A DNA stretch of 63,115 nt, the filler included, from Olpidium bornovanus S191 (Eukaryota; Fungi; Olpidiomycota): assembly GCA_017911155.1 (NCBI GenBank). It is 23 parts of 23 records of this genome, joined end to end, with 100 filler letters (N's around TTAATTAATTAA, not from the genome) between each part and the next. Parts side by side here need not be neighbours in the genome. Positions count along the whole stretch, not along the records: positions 29,188 to 31,625 come from JAEFCI010007356.1; 22 more parts are not named here. One strand, 5' to 3'. Below are positions 3,117 through 63,061 of the stretch, in pieces. Each line of letters starts with the position of its first letter. The stretch's first letter is position 1. The notes beneath the pieces were generated by a model. That model was not told the origin of the DNA. It saw only the letters and a program-made list of their open reading frames with translations, and made no database searches. The position numbers and the translations under genes are program-made.

Positions 3117-3699
3117 GGGCGGGGGGGAAAAAATCCCCCCCCCCCCCCCCCCCGATACCACACCCACTCGCGAGCTCGCCAGCAAAACAGAAATATAAAC
3201 AAACGTAGCACTCTTCGAAGGTGTACCGGCGGTCTCCTGTTAGGTCTCCGAGCCGTCTAGTGTCGACCGCCTGCGACTGCGACGCCCCTGAGCGGGCGGT
3301 TGGCAGCTCCCGGGGGTGGAGGGCGGCAGCGGGGAGCGAGAGGAGCGCGCCAGAGCCCACGTCGAAGAGAGCTTCGAGAACTGTAAGAAGGAAACTTCGC
3401 CGTCCTGCGGCCACCCGTACTTGCGGCGAACTGCACACGTAAAACAGCCCACAGCTGTCCGTTCAAACCTGCCAAAACCCCGTCGGAGTCGACAGTCTCC
3501 CGACACCGCACGGACGACCGCCAGGATCCGTGCAGACACCTGCGAAGTGCGGGGCAGCATGGCGGGCAGCGCGCGCCGTTGCATAAATAGCGCCCTTCCC
3601 TTCTCCGTTTGTACTTTACTGTCACGGCGCGCGCCGTACGGTAAAGTCAAGTCCCTCCCGGGCTATGCCAACACGCCCCTGGGGGGAGGCAGCCCGCAG

Positions 3700-5095
3700 A
3701 GCAGATCACGTGACCCGAGATTCGCCAAGGCCACTATACACACCGGTGTGTCTAGCCGCGATATCACGTGACTGTCGCTAGTATTTCCGAGCGCCTGTAC
3801 CCGTATTCCGAACCCGTAGTCCAAATAAAAACAAAACCAAGAACGCCGTAACCACCTACAGGTTATGAGCCCAACTCGGACTCCCTTCCCACACCCCTAA
3901 AAACCCCGTCGACCCGTCAACAACTAAAGAAGGAACCATGGAGGGACAGAACCCTGTGAAGGGCACGTCAGCAGACGCCGTGGGACGCGGCGGACAGCAA
4001 GGAAGGAAGGTAAGTGCGAGAAGCACACACCCCATGGTGTCCCAGCTTATTGAGGACGCAGGAAAGGGCGAACGCGCGGGAAGCGCCGTGCCCAGGAAAA
4101 GGGGTGACCGCGCGCGAAGCGCAGTGACCACGGGGAAGGGTGACTGGGCAGGAAACGCGGAACTCGGAGGTGCGGAAAGCGCCATCGACACAGAAAAGGG
4201 TGACCGCACGGGAAGTGCGGGTGGCGCACAAGGCGCCGCCACAGAAAGGGTAAGTGAAAACCACGTGCGAAGCGCAGGAAGCGCAGAAACACTGGAAGCA
4301 CGATTTGAACAACTTCTAATCGAACGAGAGGAGGAAAAACGCGCCGCCCGCGAGCAACTAAACCTTCAACGCGCACAGTTGGATGCCCAGCGGGCGCAAA
4401 TGGAACAGCTAACCATCCTACTACAGCAGCAGCTGGCGGCACCCCGAACGAGACTCCGGGGTTCCGTACCGCAGGACTCCGACGAGGACGACTACCATGA
4501 CGAGACTGAATCAGTTGCTTCGTCTTCCCGGGTGCGGAAACACCCCTCTGTCGTGACTAACGTCTCTTCTCTCGAGAGACACCCCCGCGCTCGAACTCAA
4601 ACAGACCGCGGTGGACAGGAAAGCGACGACGAAGAAAGTAGCAGTCCGCACACCGCTGTGTGGCAAGTAAAACAACTGCTAGCCGATGTGCCTAAGTACG
4701 ATGGCCATGGCGGAGCCGACCTATTGGAAGTTTTCATCGAGAAGTTCGATACCTACAATGCCGAGAGTGGAAGGCTTGTTTCTACCACTATGAAACTAAA
4801 CCAAGCGGTTCAAAAACTCGAAAAGAAAGCCGCAAAGTTCTGGCTTGCGCATTCCCGCAAGCACCCACAGGGCGACCCAGAGCGCATAAGTACCTGGGGA
4901 GAACTGCGTTCCGTGCTGCGTAAACAGTTTTACCCTTTTAACTATGAAGAGCAACTGCGTACCAAGTTAGCAGACATGAACTTGTCGAAATATGCTAACG
5001 TTTTTTCATACATAGACGCATTTAACGGAGTTTTTATGCAGATCCCGGACGCCGAAAAGGACGACAAGCAGTATATGCTGATGTTTAAACAAGGA
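3700..5095 (+). mobile_element. LTR retrotransposon 5' part: LTR end, PBS and gag (truncated by gap)
   Basis: ...CTACA at 3856-3860 is followed directly by GGTTATGAGCCC (3861-3872), complementary to the initiator tRNA-Met anticodon arm. The gag ORF follows. The LTR left edge was not located. Confidence 0.8.
3938..5095 (+). CDS. Retrotransposon Gag (capsid domain, Retrotrans_gag-like), partial
   Basis: Coiled-coil LEARFEQLLIEREEEKR, then VPKYDG...ISTWGELRSVLRKQFYPFNYEEQLRTKLADM...VFSYIDAF...FKQG. Confidence 0.75.
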
Positions 5096-6626: not shown

Positions 6627-8441
6627 CATGGTCTGCACCCTCGAGAACAATTCGCGGAGGGGCGAGAAAATGAGGACTTGAAGAACTCTATCCCTCGCCA
6701 AAATGATCTCCGTTCTTTGGGAGGCCGACGTCCGTTGACGTCGGAAAACTTCTTTGGCGTCCGGCGGCGGCCTCGCGGTGAGCGGAAGGGAGGATACCGA
6801 AAAGAAGAAAAAAAGATGAAAAGAAGTCGGGGATGGCCGAAAGAGGAAAAGCACTGCTGTGTTTTAAATGTTACCATACCGGTCACTTCAAGCGCAATTG
6901 CCGAACGAAGAAGGCTAAGGAAAAGGAAAAAGATAAAGAGAAAAAGGCGTGGCATGGGGTAGGCTTCGCATTGGTGACGCGGGGGCCGCTGACGGCGACG
7001 ACGAGGCGGTGGGGCAGGTTCTCCGTAGGGACATCGTCGGCTGCGCACGGGCAATTGCTGCTGGATAGCAGGAGCTCGTTCCATGTCACGGGATCCTCCC
7101 GAGATCTCCGGGATCTAACCCCGTGCATGATGCAAATCATCACTGGGGACGGGAAGACACTGCGTGCCACATACCACGGAACATTGGCTGTTCAGTCCGA
7201 AGAGACCGGAGCAGAGGCGACTTTTCGCCCAGGTTGCTGGCCGTCCCGGGTTGACGAGCAGCGTGATTTCTCTTGGTCCTCTCGGAAGGAAGAGAGTTTG
7301 TGCAAAGTTCTTCGACGGCGAATGTCATCTTACTCGAGACAAGGTTCCCATCGTGTCGGCTGTCCGCACAGCCTGAGGCGTTTACCAATTACGCGCGCGG
7401 GTTCTTGCGGGCGGCGGGAGTGGAATGAGGGCGGGCGTGGGCGCATGCCTTGCGCATGTAGTCACTAATTCCGGCCCAGGAAAAATTCTACGACTCTGTC
7501 GCGCCCTCTACGGCCTCAAGCAAGCCGGCCGCGCTTAGGAACAACGTTTGCAAGAGGCGATTCGGTGGCGACATTTAGATAATGAAGCCTATGTACGAAC
7601 CGAATCGGATTGAACAAAGACTTGGTTACTCACAAGGGTGGATGACCTTTCCATCTTCTTGTCAAAAAAGGAGCATATTCGAAGGGTCAAGGATAAGCCG
7701 CAGGAAGACTTCAGGATCGCCGAGGTCGATTGCCCGGTTCACTGTTGGGAATTCACCCGCGGAAAAGCGAGACATTAGACTCAGCCAGATCGCGTACATC
7801 GAAAGCTGGGGGAGCGGTTCGGGATAATTGACTACTCCTCATTATGGACTTCTAACGGTGTTGGCAAGAAGAATGCCGTTGATGACCGCGGTAAACCATT
7901 GGACATTGAGGGAAAGCGTCGGTATCGAAAGCTGGTGGGGGCACTCAAATTCGCAGCAACGGGAACAAGACCGGACATCGCCTTCTCGGTCGTTTGTCTC
8001 GGGCGCCGTCAAGCGGCTTCAAGCAAATTGGACTGGACACTTGCGCTGCGAGTCCTGCGATATTCTCTGACCACGAAGACCTTCCTCGGGCTGGTATATT
8101 GCCTGAGGTGGCCCCGGCCTCATCGGATGATGCAGACTCTGCCGAGCGCCGTGAAACCCGGCAAGCACATCGACGTGGGACACCACTTCATCCGTTAGTG
8201 CGCCGGGCGGGGAAACGTGATTTGGTCAATCCGACGTCCTCACCAAGACGCTTGCGCGTGTCAAACACGAACGTCAGGCCACGGAATTAGTAATACGGGA
8301 ACGGTGCTGCACCTCGGGCAGGCGTTGGCATCACGGGGGAGTCTTAGCCGTAGTAGACTATGTCACGTGACCTCACCCTGTGAAACCCGGCTGTGCACAC
8401 CTAAACGGCGTAAATGCAACGTCAACTTTCAAACACTAACA
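6627..8441 (+). mobile_element. Degenerate, internally deleted Ty1/copia element
   Basis: CCHC knuckle CFKCYHTGHFKRNC; copia protease-like LLDSRSSFHVT; RT motifs LYGLKQAGRA*, WVDDL and SQIAYIE; RYRKLVGALKFAATGTRPDIAF; RNase H end KHIDVGHHFIR. Many frameshifts; PPT GGGGGAG at 8335-8341. Confidence 0.9.
8342..8441 (+). repeat. 3' LTR, about 100 bp
   Basis: Follows the PPT. Begins TCTTAG (probably mutated TGTTAG) and ends CTAACA, its inverted repeat. Confidence 0.6.
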
Positions 8442-15849: not shown

Positions 15850-17406
15850 GAGAGTCCGTGATATGTTCACGTAAGTGTCGATCATGTAGCACATCCTCTT
15901 CTGTGCTCGAGGCTTTGGACTTGTTCCCCAGGAGCACCCCCTCAAGAGGCCGCAAGCAAAAGTGGCTCGCAGGAAGTGTTTGGAAACATGAACAGGGGTG
16001 ACCTCGAAAAAGAAATTTTGATGGAAATTCCTCCTGGCTTTGAAGCGCCGCGGGGCACGAGTTTGCGACTTTAGAAGCCCTTGTATGCACTCAAACAAGC
16101 CGGACGCGCCTGGTCCTGCAGGCTGCGCACCTTTGGAGCGCATTGGATTTAAACGCTTGGAGGCGGAACATGGCGCGAATGCGCGGCCGGAAGGCGACAG
16201 AGCCGGCACCAGCACCCAGCAAACTTGACTACTCTCGTGGGTTGACGATCTTGTCATCTTTGCCCAAAACCAGCGCACCGCAGACGACATCAAAACGGCG
16301 CTGAGGGACGAGGTTTGGCCTGACGGAGCTCGGCGAGCCCATCCTTTCGTCGGAATTCGCATTGCTCGCGATCGGAAGTGCGGCGAAATCCTGCTCGACC
16401 AAGCTGCGTACATTCATGCGTTAGCTGAACGCCACGGCGTCGAGCACGCCAAGCCTACGTACACCCCCGGTACACTCAACAAGAACCAAGACATCACCCG
16501 AGAGAAACCCTTCGACTCCACCAAGTATTGCGCCCTCGTTGGCGCCCTGCTCTTGTGTGGCCATGGCCACCCGGACATCGCGTTCGTCGTTGGATTTCTT
16601 GGACTCCTTCAATCCGGCCCCCGCCGCTCGGACTGGACCGCTGCGCTCCGCGTGTTGAAGTACGCACGACAACTGGAAACTTTGTTTTGCGCATTGGGGT
16701 GGCGGCTCCAATGCGCTAGTCACAGGATTCGTCGACGCCGATTACTTTTTCGCCGAATGCAAGGAAATGTGTTGCTCAACTAGCGGTTACGTTTTTTTGC
16801 CCGGGGGAGGCGCCGTCAGTTGGCGCTGTCGGCGCCAAGAGGTCGTGGCGACCTCGACAACGGAGGCGGAGTACATTGTGCTGGCGAAGGCATCAAAGGA
16901 AGCGATCTGGCTCCGCCAGCTTCCCCGCGGACTGGGCGTCAAGTGCCCATCGGTCCCCGTCCACGAGGACAACAGAAGTGCGTTCTAACTGGCTCAACAT
17001 CCGAACCATCATATCGACGGTGGCACTGCGTGCACGAGTGCGTGAGCGCCGAGAAATCGCTTTGCGTACCGTGGCAACCGAGGCCATGACGGCCGACATT
17101 CTCTCTAAGTGTCTCACGCGAGTCAAGCACGACAAACACGCAGCGGGACTGGGCCTTCTTCGGGCAAGACTCATTTTCTCCTTTGTTCTGTTTCCATCCG
17201 CCACTTTCTGTGTGCTTTGTTCTCTCTCTCTTTCTTTTCTTTCGATCCCCGCTTACCGTCGATGCGGTAACCTTGAGCGAGGGGGAGTGTTATGTGTTAT
17301 GCAGCGAAGCGATAGAAGTAACGTGATTTCCAATCCCTGACCACCTATCTATACTCCGCTCCCGCACTCCGTCGAAATACACGCTCCTCGTGCGCTACTC
17401 ATAACA
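15850..17406 (+). mobile_element. Degenerate Ty1/copia RT-RNase H with 3' LTR
   Basis: GDLEKEILMEIPPGF, LYALKQAGRAW, WVDDLVIF, STSGYVF..GGAVSWRCRRQEVVATSTTEAEY, EDNRSA; PPT GAGGGGGAG ends at 17287. Confidence 0.92.
17288..17406 (+). repeat. 3' LTR, 119 bp
   Basis: Starts TGTTATG directly after the PPT and ends CATAACA, a perfect 7-bp inverted repeat. Confidence 0.8.
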
Positions 17407-27049: not shown

Positions 27050-27934
27050 GCAATTCCCTCTTCATAGTTTGTTTACTAGACCAATTCCCCCCTTTGCCAA
27101 AAAACCTTCACGCATTTCCCCGGGTAGCGCGTCTTTAGGCGCGTCCTGTCCAATTCCTCCACCACATACGTGGCCGTATCTCGGTAAACCTCTGCAATGC
27201 GATACGGCCAGCTCCACTTCTCTTCAAACTTCCTTTCCGCTCAATGCTGTATCTCGTTCTGCGAGTTGCGGACCAGCACCCAGTCCCCCACACGTAACGA
27301 TACAGATTGTCGCAGCCGCCGCGAGTCGACGTACTCCTTGGTCTTGTCCCGAACACGCCGCGTTTCCTCCACCACCGCCTTGCAGATATCTGACGCTCGT
27401 CGTTCCAACTGCCTTATTCGTAACGCCAGAAGCTCCTCGGTGGAAATTCCATCTGCCGACGGCAATACGGCCCACGTCACGACATCCGATTCCACAGGCA
27501 AAACCATCGGCAATCGATTCATCAGTTTAGCCGGCGAAAAGCCCGTCGTCCTCGTCACTGTCGTTTAATCCGCCCACAGTGCAAACAGCAGTTAGTTCAC
27601 CCATTCTTTAACTCGCCCATTGGCCGCTTTCTTAAGAGCCCCCAATAACGTTTGGTGACCACGTTCTGCTTGCCCATTTGCCTCCGGATTATACGCAGAC
27701 GTTAACCTCAAGTCAATATTAAACCGGCAAAGGAACTCATCTGCCTCATTCACGTTTAATTCTCCCCAATCCGCACGGACTCGCGCCAGACATCCGTACC
27801 GACATACGATATATTCAAAAATAAACTTGCATACTGCCGCGGTCTTGTTGGAGGATAATGCTTTCCCTTCGACAAAGTTCGTCAGCCCCTCCCGAGCAAG
27901 TACAAGATACCAATAATTCCCGACTCGGGGCATG
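27050..27934 (-). mobile_element. Degenerate Ty3/gypsy integrase (core plus GPY/F region)
   Basis: WYLVLAREGLTNFVEGKAL...RVRADWGE...SAYNPEANGQAERGHQTL, TTGFSPAKL, LRVGDWVLVRN, KFEEKWSWPYRI; in-frame stops. Confidence 0.9.
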
Positions 27935-28919: not shown

Positions 28920-29888
28920 GGGGGGGGAAGGGCCCTTGGGGGGGGGGGGGTTTGGGGGGGGGGGGGGGGGGCCGGGGGGGGGAAGGGGGGGGGAAGGGGG
29001 GGGACGCGCGCGCCGGCGGCCATGTGGCGCGTGCGCCGGAGGGTGGCGTTACCCGCTGGACGCACACTCTGTCAGGTAAAAAAAAAANNNNNNNNNNNNN
29101 NNNNNNNNNNNNNNNNNNNNNNNNNNNNNNNTTAATTAATTAANNNNNNNNNNNNNNNNNNNNNNNNNNNNNNNNNNNNNNNNNNNNCGCTGGGGGGGAA
29201 AGGGGGCAAGGGGGAAAGCCCTTTGATTGGCGGACTTCGAGGGGGGAAGGGGGGAAGCGCTCTTCGATTGGCGGGCTTCGAGGGGGACTATTCTATTGGT
29301 CGACCCCCGGGTTCGGGGGCCGTCCTGCCCTCGATCCTGCCGCCACTTCCGCCCTTCGACCGCCTCTCGCCTTTTGCCCTGCGCCCTTCGCCCGCCGCCC
29401 CTCGTCCTTTGCTCTGCGCCCTTCGCCCGCCGCCCCTCGCTTGCCGCCCTTCGCCCGCCGTGGCGTCGATCAAAGACGGCGGTTCGAGGGCCGTGCTACA
29501 GCACACGCGAGCTCCCCCCTTTATTCCTCTACGTCTATATAGGAAAAGCTCGCCCGTCGGAGTCCGTCGGGGTCCGTCAGAACCTTCTCAAACCTTCCTC
29601 CCTTTCTGGGTACGCTCGGAGCTTGCCCCTTTCCCCCTTGCCCCCCTTTTAGGGACCGGAGGTTTTCCCCCTTGTCCCGTGCCCCTTGCGCACGGGCCCG
29701 GGGGGTTCAGGGGTGTGCTCCGCCACCCCCTTGGCGGAAACCAGGATTCCGCAGCCGAGATGCTATTCCCACAATTTGCATGCTCCCGTCCGGCATCCGC
29801 ATTGCGCGGTTTTGTCTCCTGCGGCGCTGTTGCTGCGTTCGTCGTCGGTCATTTCTTGGTGGCATCGGGTCACGTGAAAAAATTTCAA

Positions 29889-31060
29889 CACGTAGAAGGC
29901 CAGAAGTGCCTTGACGTTGTGGTTTCCATCCTTGCGAACATACAGACATGGTTCATGCTTGGTCGGCAGGAACTCAATCTTCTGTAATGACTTGCTCAAC
30001 TCGACATTCCATTCATAAGCGGACTGTGTTAAGCCGTAGATCGTTTTGTTTAAGCGCCAGACATGATTCGGGTGCTGTTGATCAATCGCGCCGTCGGGCT
30101 GCTCCATGAAGACGGTGTGGTGAAGTGGTGCCTGTAAATACACAGTTGCAACATCGTATCCGATGAGTATCCATGCATGTGCCGCAGCATACACAATCAT
30201 CAATCGTAACGCAGCATGTGTAGTCACAAGCGCAAATATTTCTTTGTAATCCAGTCCTTCAGTCTGGGTGTATCCACGCACAACAAAGCGTGCCTTGTAT
30301 TTATCGACTGTGCCGTCTGGACGCATTTTTTTCTTGAACACCCACCTTCCCGAACAGAGGCGCATATCTGGTGATCGTTCGACCAATGTATACGTTCCAT
30401 GTATTTTTTTCTTGAACACCCACTTTCCCGAACAGAGGCGCATATCTGGTGATTGTTCGACCAATGTATACGTTCCATGTCGGCAAAGGCTCTGCAACTC
30501 ACTGTTAACAGCTTGCTGCCACTCTACAGCATCAGGCAAACTCAGCGCTTGACAAATTGTTTTTGGTTCAACCGGGTCCAGGTGTATTGAGGAATAAGCG
30601 TTTGCCGGTGTCGGTGTCCCCGTGAGTATGAATGCAGTCGGGATCGGTCGACGCTGTCGATCATAATAATTTCGCAGTAACTGATCACAGGACAAATTCG
30701 AATACGGTTCCCATGAATCGTGTGACGAATCATCCCCCTTCCAGTGGATGAGAATTCCAGGGTGCCATCTTCAACACGATCATCCAAAATGTCCTCTACT
30801 TCGTATTCGGTGGCAATGCTATCATTGACGACTAATGAGTCTGGGATGGTCATTTCTTGCTGATAGTGTGATCCGTCCTTGTACAACCAGTTCTCGTCGA
30901 AACGTACGTTATGCCGTTCGATAATTGATCGGCTGTGAGGAGATATCCTTTGGAGGTCGTAGAGTAACCGACGAGATAGCATATCTGGGCTGCATCAGCT
31001 AGTTTTGATGATCGATCCTCCTTGAGAACATGCACGTTGTAATGATCGGCCTCGATGGGC
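29889..31060 (-). mobile_element. Ty1/copia pol fragment: integrase C-terminal domain, chromodomain, RT
   Basis: RSSKLADAAQICYLVGYSTTSKGY.../IIERHNVRFDE (copia IN tail). Then EYEVEDILDDRVEDGTLEF/IHWKGDDSSHDSWEPYSNLSCDQLLRNYY. Then EPKTICQAL...WQQAVNSELQSL...KYKARFVVRGYTQTEGLDYKEIFA...LNKTIYGLTQSAYEW (RVT_2). Confidence 0.92.
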
Positions 31061-31239
31061 ACGTGACCTGTACTATATAGCCGGTCGGGCCCCCGGGCAC
31101 ACCGAATAGACTCAACCGTCCTTCCTTTTTCGAACGTCTCACTACAAAGTTGGGAATCCGAGGAAGAACCATCCCTCTTCGACCAGCTTCCCTTTCGACC
31201 AGCTCCCTTTCGACCAGCTCTTTCGCTTCGCTCCCCGCT

Positions 31240-31555
31240 GCACCCGCGCTTCTGCGCCTGCGCTTCGCCTCCGCCGTGCCCGCGCTTCGCCTCCGCCGCG
31301 CCCGCGCTTCGCTTCCGTCGCGCCCGCGCTCCGCCTCCGCCGCGCTCGCGCCTCGGCGCCTGCGCTTCGCCTCCGTCGCGCCCGCGCTTTGCCTCCACCG
31401 CGCCCGCGCTTTGCCTTCGCCGCGCCCGCGCTTCGCCTTCGCCGCGCCCGCGCTTCGCCTCCGCCGCGCCCGCGCTTCGCTTCCGTCGCGCCCGCGCTCC
31501 GCCTCCGCCGCGCCCGCGCTCCGCCGCGCCCGCGCTCCGCCGCGCCACCCTTCGC
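31240..31555. repeat. GC-rich 22-bp minisatellite
   Basis: Repeated unit CCCGCGCTTCGCCTCCGCCGCG with variants, next to three short TTTCGACCAGCT repeats at about 31178-31215. Confidence 0.85.
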
Positions 31556-31726
31556 CGCAGCACTCGTTTTTCGCGCTTGCGTTTGTTTGTTTTTGTTTCG
31601 TCGCCGAAACGACGCCCGTTTTTGCNNNNNNNNNNNNNNNNNNNNNNNNNNNNNNNNNNNNNNNNNNNNTTAATTAATTAANNNNNNNNNNNNNNNNNNN
31701 NNNNNNNNNNNNNNNNNNNNNNNNNC

Positions 31727-61739: not shown

Positions 61740-63061
61740 TACCTCGTAACGGTGCTTGGAATCAATAAAGACGTCTTCGATATCCAACAGATCGTAGGAG
61801 AAACGCGCGTTTGGACCGATCCCCTCGCCCTAGGCGCGGAGATTTTGAAATGTTCAGGGCAAAAGAAATAAAATCCGACGGGACGGCGTCCGAAAGCCAA
61901 AAACATACGGTGATCTGAAGCGGCAGCCGTATTTCCCGTCCGGAGACTTGGCAGAAAATTGTCTGGTTATGAACCGACGCCATGACCGGTCTAAAAATCA
62001 CGGTTATGTCCACACAGGAGTTCGGATAGATGTTACCCTCCACGGGCTCTATTGTCAGAATGTCATCGTCGAATAACATCTTGTTACGCTCAACATCCCG
62101 GTGCTTGTTCTGTCGGGAGTAAAAACAATAAGATTCGGCAGGTGGCCCCAGCCCCGCCATCATTTTCTTTCTCACCCCCCATCCCCCCTTTGTTTTTTTC
62201 CCTCTAGTTGCGGCCAAATTTTCGCCTTGCCGCGTTCAACAGAACAGGATCGCTAACGCCGACGCACTTTGTACCTCCTGCTCAAAAGGCAGATATCCGT
62301 CAGACTCGACGACCCGTACTTCGCCAGGGCGTTTCTTTCGATTTTTTCCTCTTCGTCAAGTTCGGACTGGTGACGGTAGCGAAACTGGTCTTCCTCAAAG
62401 TCGGTAGCAAACTTTTTCCACTGAAAGTGGGCCTTTCGCGTCACCCCCCTGATATATTAGCCTGGCGTCGTTACGAATTAGCCCGGCCGGGCCCCCCCCC
62501 CCACACCACACCAAAAAAATAAATAAATAAACAATTACCATAATATCGCTCCTGTTCATTATTCGGATTGTTTTCATTGATGCCCTGGTGATGTAGGTGT
62601 GATCCAGCTGAAGGAGGTTCTGCTCCAGCCGTATATCAGCGTCTTCGGCTTGCGCAATAAGGCGAACGTTCACTTGTTCCCCAGAGTGGTATTTGACCGT
62701 CAGCTCGTTATTAAAACTCCCGACCCTCTGGGTGGCCGGCGCACCGCGGTTAAGGAATTTGTTTGACCGTTTGAGCGTTCACAAGAACGGGAATCCTTGT
62801 GCATGTGTGTGTGTGCAAGGGGGGGGGGGGGCGGGCGAGGTCCGGCCAGAGTAAACGGCGTACCTCGGGCGTAAAGGCGATGTCAAGCTGCATGTTTGCG
62901 TTGACGTCAAGGTATCCGTACGAGGGTATGGCCGTAAAAGGGCCGTCCGTCTCGATAACAAATTTTGCCGGGCTGTTCCCGACGTTACGGACGAGCATGG
63001 TCTTCTTGGTCGTGTGCGCAACGGCCGATTCCGGGAAATTGATTACGTCGGGGAAGTCCAA
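61740..63061 (-). CDS. HYDIN: HYDIN (axonemal central-pair protein), internal exons
   Basis: DFPDVINFP..AV...KKTMLVRNVGN, IRLEQNLLQLDHTYIT, AHFQWKKFAT, IEPVEGNIYPNS, IFCQVSGREIRLPLQI, GEGIGP. Confidence 0.93.

Follow-up and report, generated by a model that had tools for sequence, protein, structure and literature searches.

A decayed Ty1/copia fragment in Olpidium bornovanus S191 belongs to a lineage with an HP1-like chromodomain between integrase and reverse transcriptase

The integrases of CoDi-A, a group of diatom Ty1/copia elements, carry a putative C-terminal chromodomain, and the available part of the paper that described them reports none in other copia elements by then (Llorens et al. 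2009, PMC2774666). CoDi-A is the same as CoDi-I, and in the accessible portion of a later study the chromoviruses and CoDi-I are the sole prior cases named before Chronos is added to them (Ustyantsev et al. 2017, PMC5348765). According to the accessible sections of another paper, a chromodomain is found in 94% of chromoviruses and in none of the other plant LTR groups, and its presence serves almost as a diagnosis of a gypsy chromovirus; type I chromodomains and cellular ones with three aromatic residues bind methylated H3K9, and the target preference of chromoviruses is assumed to come from their chromodomains (PMC6317226). In the available passages of PMC3248453, PMC10799480 and PMC10817607, mentions of chromodomains are either generic or concern gypsy or Maverick elements. 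The design considered here is already known from diatom CoDi-A/CoDi-I, the one copia exception in the literature searched as far as the accessible parts of those papers extend, and an earlier note on this DNA overstated its novelty (PMC2774666, PMC5348765). No fungal chromo-copia element was found in that literature, which took in few subscription papers.

The window analyzed here is a 63,115-nt stretch of the O. bornovanus S191 assembly, in which 23 short contigs are set end to end, each separated from the next by a stop-codon cassette flanked by N runs. The chromo-copia copy lies on a 2438-nt contig at 29188-31625, and sequence beyond the ends of this contig is no true neighbor (Table 1). 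Along the minus strand Pfam finds SH3_retrovirus, then Chromo, then RVT_2, so the integrase tail, chromodomain and copia reverse transcriptase (RT) do follow one another as the earlier note had read them, and the HMM search that it proposed recovers the SH3-like, Chromo and RVT_2 domains. It was also right that the second half of the chromodomain shares its frame with a copia RT, the two lying in one common open frame, and that the aromatic cage reads Tyr, Trp and Asp. The single 1-nt frameshift that it placed near 30750 is present, but a second one lies near 30941 in the SH3-like tail, and the integrase tail that it had quoted as one read spans two frames (tblastn against the intact relatives P0094 and P0179).

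Table 1. Features of the chromo-copia contig, in positions of the window
Feature	Position	Strand	Basis
First part of the retroviral SH3-like domain that ends the copia integrase; no integrase core upstream	30937..31035	-	PF25597 in the frame of 31221..30853, about 31035..30937: E 2e-7, 31.3 bits, cut-off 27; 77% identity to P0094 over 30 aa
First frameshift, ~10 nt missing relative to intact relatives	30940..30942	-	tblastn frame change from -2 to -1 against P0094 and P0179
End of SH3-like domain and 25-residue linker	30809..30940	-	Sequence and alignments
HP1-like chromodomain, broken near 30751 by a 1-nt frameshift; Tyr, Trp and Asp at the cage positions	30657..30808	-	PF00385 on C-terminal half alone (30752..30657): E 4.2e-6, 27 bits, cut-off 25.1; PDB matches CBX5/HP1; shuffle test
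Basic tail (common to intact relatives), then short linker; probable integrase/RT protease site	30570..30656	-	Alignments
N-terminal two thirds of a Ty1/copia reverse transcriptase, truncated at YVDD	29890..30569	-	PF07727 E 6e-43; 54% identity to P0094 over 172 aa
Tandem duplication of 78 nt within RT, in frame, copies 97% identical	30325..30480		Sequence
GC-rich stretch in place of remaining RT; starts TG; TATA-like and AATAAA-like motifs; likely LTR of another element	29188..29890	-	Sequence; GC 0.60-0.71, copia part 0.46-0.50
Unrelated upstream flank ending in TTACA, with 22-bp tandem array at 31254-31540 in place of integrase core	31039..31625	-	Sequence; no blastn similarity to downstream flank

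This copy is dead: it has two frameshifts and a 78-nt duplication, it lacks the integrase core, and its RT breaks off at 29890 in the active-site motif YVDD, of which only the first two residues remain; upstream of the SH3-like tail no integrase core is found, and similarity to P0094 begins at 31032 (tblastn). GC content is 46-52% in the copia part and 60-81% in the flanks, and other repeats have likely truncated the copy at either end. Since the downstream flank starts with TG and holds TATA-like and AATAAA-like motifs, it is likely an LTR of another element. That the two flanks are the paired LTRs of one carrier element is ruled out, their mutual similarity being nil by blastn. The upstream tandem array is GC-rich, with about 13 copies of its unit. 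The motif CACGTGAC occurs seven times in the window (3707, 3765, 8362, 23408, 29869, 31060 and 49460); the two flanks that border the copia fragment have one occurrence each, and a putative LTR at 3619-3861 has two. No second copy of the chromo-copia fragment is present elsewhere in the window.

Ty1/copia elements (Pseudoviridae) are defined by the Pol order PR-INT-RT-RH (PMC8515867). The window has an integrase tail followed by RT, and the full order is present in the relatives P0179 and P0247. The RT is of the copia type, matching RVT_2, with no RVT_1 match in the window copy at E<=1, and neither a gypsy RT nor the RT-RH-INT order of chromoviruses is present in the window copy, P0094, P0179, P0170 or P0247. 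The element is therefore copia, not a chromovirus, as the earlier note had held from the order of integrase and RT; gypsy identity is rejected by RVT_2.

The chromodomain itself is split by its frameshift. Its N-terminal half, in the other frame, scores 17.1 bits alone against a profile of 181 non-copia chromodomains, and the whole domain bridged with X scores 66.5 bits where 1000 shuffles of the N-terminal half reach at best 51.1 and on average 39.6, on a profile that is not fully independent, since three chromo-copia domains served as the seed for collecting its members. The best PDB sequence matches of the C-terminal half are CBX5 and HP1. The cage positions fall at 30805-30803 (Tyr), 30743-30741 (Trp) and 30734-30732 (Asp, GAT). 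In the four intact members of the lineage (P0094, P0179, P0170 and P0247) the first position is F/Y/Y/Y, the second W and the third Y/F/Y/Y, so that all four have the three-aromatic cage of a type I (HP1-like) chromodomain. Because the Asp codon of the window is one base from a Tyr codon, the copy has other lesions and the intact members are aromatic at this position, the Asp is likely a product of decay; its status as a lineage trait is rejected by those same four residues.

The relatives come from Logan, ENA or JGI environmental records on contigs of 2.6-6.8 kb. In an exhaustive search of 1.84 billion representatives the top match was P0094 (49% identity, E 2e-78), in which Pfam finds rve, SH3, Chromo (E 1e-18) and RVT_2 in order; it is colinear with the window across SH3, chromodomain and RT (E 8e-88) and is the nearest relative of the window chromodomain and of the window RT alike. 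To ordinary copia RTs the window RT is 37-42% identical, including 41% to a Solanum element. Three of the best 150 among 63,423 matches of this search carry a chromodomain: P0094, P0179 and P0170. A profile of the alignment of chromodomain, linker and RT start (hereafter A1) gave 322 matches, and among the 120 listed five have both Chromo and RVT_2, namely P0094, P0179 (a 1492-aa gag-pol), P0170, P0247 (1743 aa) and P0283 (1622 aa); clusters added the near copies P0244, P0362 and P0363. By Pfam rve, SH3, Chromo and RVT_2 follow one another in this order in P0094, P0179, P0247 and P0283, as do SH3, Chromo and RVT_2 in P0170, with Chromo E values of 1e-13 to 1e-18 in the chromodomain-bearing relatives.

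When 78 linkers between integrase and RT were extracted, eight held a strong chromodomain, 69 held nothing and one, from P0056, held a weak relic. This relic is degenerate, chromodomain-like and missed by Pfam (16.0 bits, against 11.1 for the best of 1000 shuffles), and P0056 is a copia element with a Ty3-type gag. A word-index search with the C-terminal half of the chromodomain and the RT start gave no chromo-copia element among 28 candidates, and a search with the window ORF gave 89 copia proteins, none (0/89) with a precomputed Chromo domain and none by phmmer. Scans with A1 returned 79 metagenome loci, two viral loci and one genome locus; a chromodomain and a copia RT in tandem are absent from the 81 loci scanned. 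Both are present in L010, on opposite strands and 6 kb apart, and in L082 the A1 match is confined to the chromodomain part. Two other copia polyproteins, P0024 and P0034, are about 1900 aa long and have a precomputed PF05869, which we take to be a DNA N6-adenine methyltransferase family.

For phylogeny, 44 of 125 proteins were kept, chosen for a long RT-RH and the presence of an integrase and after removal of 12 near copies, together with the window RT, which fills a quarter of the columns, and unrooted LG+G4 trees of integrase, RT and RNase H were built from columns that excluded the chromodomain and linkers, without CoDi, GalEa or Ty1 as references. The window, P0094, P0179, P0170, P0247 and P0011 form one branch with an SH-aLRT of 100 in the 45-row tree, 99 when P0056 is added (46 rows) and 100/99 in a careful search of 24 hand-picked rows. 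In an RT-only FastTree of 178 rows only the pairing of the window with P0094 is supported (98), and deeper grouping is unsupported. P0011, inside the six-member branch, has no chromodomain; its exclusion from the chromodomain-bearing members gives an AU p of 0.069, and either the chromodomain is dispensable or it was gained after the P0011 split. The earlier note had named family copies lacking the domain as an observation that would count against it: the four intact relatives all carry it, but P0011 on the same branch does not. The separate RT and chromodomain trees that it called for place the window RT with P0094 and, as set out below, the chromodomains of this clade with four from gypsy elements.

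P0283 falls apart from the main branch, with P0010 (99 in 45 rows, 98/94 in 24 rows); the 46-row tree does not resolve this pairing, and a topology constrained to unite P0283 and the main branch is not rejected (p 0.076). P0283, P0362 and P0363, from JGI and Logan, make up an intact copia cluster with a chromodomain between integrase and RT, an ordinary copia gag and Trp as first cage residue. This cluster is possibly a separate capture of a chromodomain.

With a probability of roughly 60%, we consider the window copy a dead fragment of a copia lineage with an HP1-like chromodomain between the SH3-like domain and RT, in whose intact members the domain likely stays on the integrase, likely binds methylated H3K9 and steers insertions to heterochromatin. 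The lineage counts five known members, one contig each. In all five the chromodomain stands at the integrase C-terminus, separated from the SH3-like domain by a linker of 23-25 aa, and its helix is followed in the window and the intact relatives by the shared basic tail. The element's protease would cut between chromodomain and RT, which in intact members would likely leave the chromodomain on the integrase. The ligand would then be H3K9me2/3 rather than H3K27me, and integration would be biased to heterochromatin as in type I chromoviruses, an analogy from which we infer that the lineage targets H3K9me chromatin. The window copy is unable to target by itself because it has no integrase core, two frameshifts and an Asp in its cage.

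A functional chromodomain of the same lineage could instead recognize H3K27me, a different protein with methyl-lysine or a nucleic acid, or could tether the integrase to chromatin in general and not target heterochromatin, an alternative with a minor but real chance. Chromodomain similarity does not fix the ligand, and the basic tail could bind DNA or RNA. The predicted model of the P0094 stretch has low-to-moderate confidence (mean pLDDT 54, chromodomain blocks 67-76), and in a fold search it matches HP1/CBX chromodomains, several of them in complexes with H3K9me peptides; chains of Polycomb and CBX7/8 are also returned, with E about 1e-3. By sequence, however, HP1-family and CDY chains score far better with the A1 profile (E 5e-18 to 2e-12) than Polycomb does (E 2e-9 and weaker), and the cage is complete in all four intact members. 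We give scarcely any weight to the idea that the chromodomain is a neutral passenger in the linker between integrase and RT, for which the absence of the domain from P0011 and the broken cage of the window would speak. Averaged over the ten pairs of the five members, identity reaches 46% for the chromodomain, against 40% for RT and 23% and 17% for the linkers. Such excess conservation over RT and over both diverged linkers, among elements 30-57% identical in RT, indicates long purifying selection.

The assembly is broken into many small pieces, unrelated sequence adjoins the copia fragment at either end and gypsy integrase fragments occur elsewhere in the window, all of which would suit a chromodomain brought beside the RT by an assembly chimera or by a nested gypsy fragment of this contig. 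This explanation is very improbable and largely refuted, because the window is colinear with P0094 across SH3, chromodomain and RT; P0094, the nearest RT relative, comes from an independent dataset and has the same order uninterrupted, chromodomain and RT are each nearest to it, and the C-terminal half of the chromodomain reads into RT. It is also unlikely that the lineage branches off at the edge of diatom CoDi-A/CoDi-I or was transferred from them, in which case only the host range would be new. The position of the domain is identical in the accessible part of PMC2774666, and in an Atlas feature search with chromodomain, linker and RT start the few labeled members of the top clusters (0.89 and 0.88, under 0.9 and so a lead only, with no Pfam family) are mostly diatoms. 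Yet CoDi is copia Branch 1, whereas the RT identities of the window copy tentatively suggest Branch 2; and the CoDi domain is called putative, whereas the domains here pass Pfam Chromo and group with those of gypsy. Membership of the lineage in CoDi-A is accordingly unlikely.

Where such a lineage obtained its domain may be sought among gypsy elements. Among 93 non-redundant chromodomains the five of the clade are mostly mutual best matches, and the next is that of the gypsy integrase P0289; in a 62-column tree the clade groups with gypsy P0289, L020, L061 and L009 (SH-aLRT 97), of which L061 and L020 have the gypsy order RT-RH-IN-Chromo. The clade gag (P0179, P0247, P0011) matches Ty3_capsid and Retrotrans_gag, not the usual copia Retrotran_gag_2, and the next matches of its profile are P0056, a window ORF and the gypsy loci L049, L013 and L061; Retrotrans_gag is also present in named plant copia proteins. 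Because of the chromodomain grouping and these gag matches, the domain was possibly taken from a gypsy chromovirus, which we treat as a lead only, the tree being short, without bootstrap or a tested root, and sampled with a bias to A1-like sequences. A broader reading, which we hold tentatively and think rather less than even, is an old, so far undescribed early-fungal copia lineage to which a gypsy chromovirus gave a canonical H3K9me-reading chromodomain, and perhaps a Ty3-type gag as well. Diatom CoDi-A would have had no part in this, and beside the lineage would stand at least one further chromo-copia lineage of separate origin (the P0283 cluster, the P0056 relic). If this were true, copia would have evolved heterochromatin targeting more than once, in one case through an exchange across LTR superfamilies.

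Another contig of the window, at 3117-5095, resembles over 3619-5095 (+) the 5' end of an LTR element, with a TG...ACA stretch at about 3619-3861, then GGTTATGAGCCC, which we take to be the half-tRNA-Met primer site of hemivirus-type copia, and then a gag ORF. This ORF matches the clade gag profile at E 1.6e-26 and is 34% identical to P0011, and the contig may hold the 5' end of the chromo-copia family or of a sister family. Decayed copia RT/RNase H fragments about 30% identical to chromo-copia proteins lie at 7473-8141 (+) and 15982-17157 (+), and a decayed gypsy-type integrase core at 27313-27927 (-).

The host was read from the gene content of other contigs in this assembly. Among 82 ORFs scanned with Pfam (from 83 longer, less GC-shadowed frames, minus the two of the finding and plus one other) were a septin, Pex22, ATG101, YIF1, Brix, a formate/nitrite transporter, a receiver domain and a CFAP65-like Ig domain. 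The septin is of opisthokont type: its best solved relatives are of the animal SEPT2/7 and yeast Cdc3 types, and the septin-like chain ranked last scores far below them. The CFAP65-like domain at 61765-62235 (-) stands at the cut-off (E 6e-6) and is the only flagellar hint in the ORFs scanned; CFAP65 is tied to flagella. To our knowledge, Pex22 and hybrid kinases are absent from animals, and because of these distributions the host is likely a zoosporic fungus. Of the fungal chromo-copia lineage proposed in the earlier note, the lineage stands, with four intact relatives on one branch, and the host of the window copy looks like a flagellated fungus, but that the whole lineage is fungal does not follow, as the relatives all come from environmental assemblies.

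To equate a chromodomain with gypsy can misclassify early-diverging fungal elements. A second copia lineage with a cage-complete chromodomain would show copia integrases repeatedly reaching the same targeting solution, and the intact P0179 and P0247 offer, with the chromodomain-less P0011, a natural control for whether the domain suffices to steer copia integration to heterochromatin.

Set against described systems, the window and its relatives share with CoDi-A/CoDi-I the copia order, integrase before RT, and a chromodomain after the integrase. They differ in that the chromodomain is canonical and HP1-like, with a full cage in intact members, whereas that of CoDi-A is described as putative in the available part of its account; in that CoDi belongs to Branch 1 and the present elements apparently to Branch 2, as judged by RT identities; and in that CoDi hosts are diatoms, whereas the host here looks like a flagellated fungus. 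FunCo1-27 and GalEa (Donnart et al. 2017, PMC5445492) are likewise fungal Ty1/copia, of Dikarya clades, and "chromo" is absent from the accessible portion of that text. Chronos, an oomycete Ty3/gypsy element, likewise captured a chromodomain independently at the integrase C-terminus, but according to the sections available it has the gypsy order, an extra aRNH domain and oomycete hosts (PMC5348765). With the type I chromoviruses of Ty3/gypsy (such as MAGGY and the Tcn1 clade), as far as the available parts of PMC6317226 and PMC3248453 describe them, the lineage shares an integrase-linked chromodomain with three aromatic cage residues, and by analogy it likely works in the same way; but where the chromovirus domain stands at the end of pol, here an RVT_2 RT follows the integrase, and the chromodomain, internal to pol, would need proteolytic release from RT.
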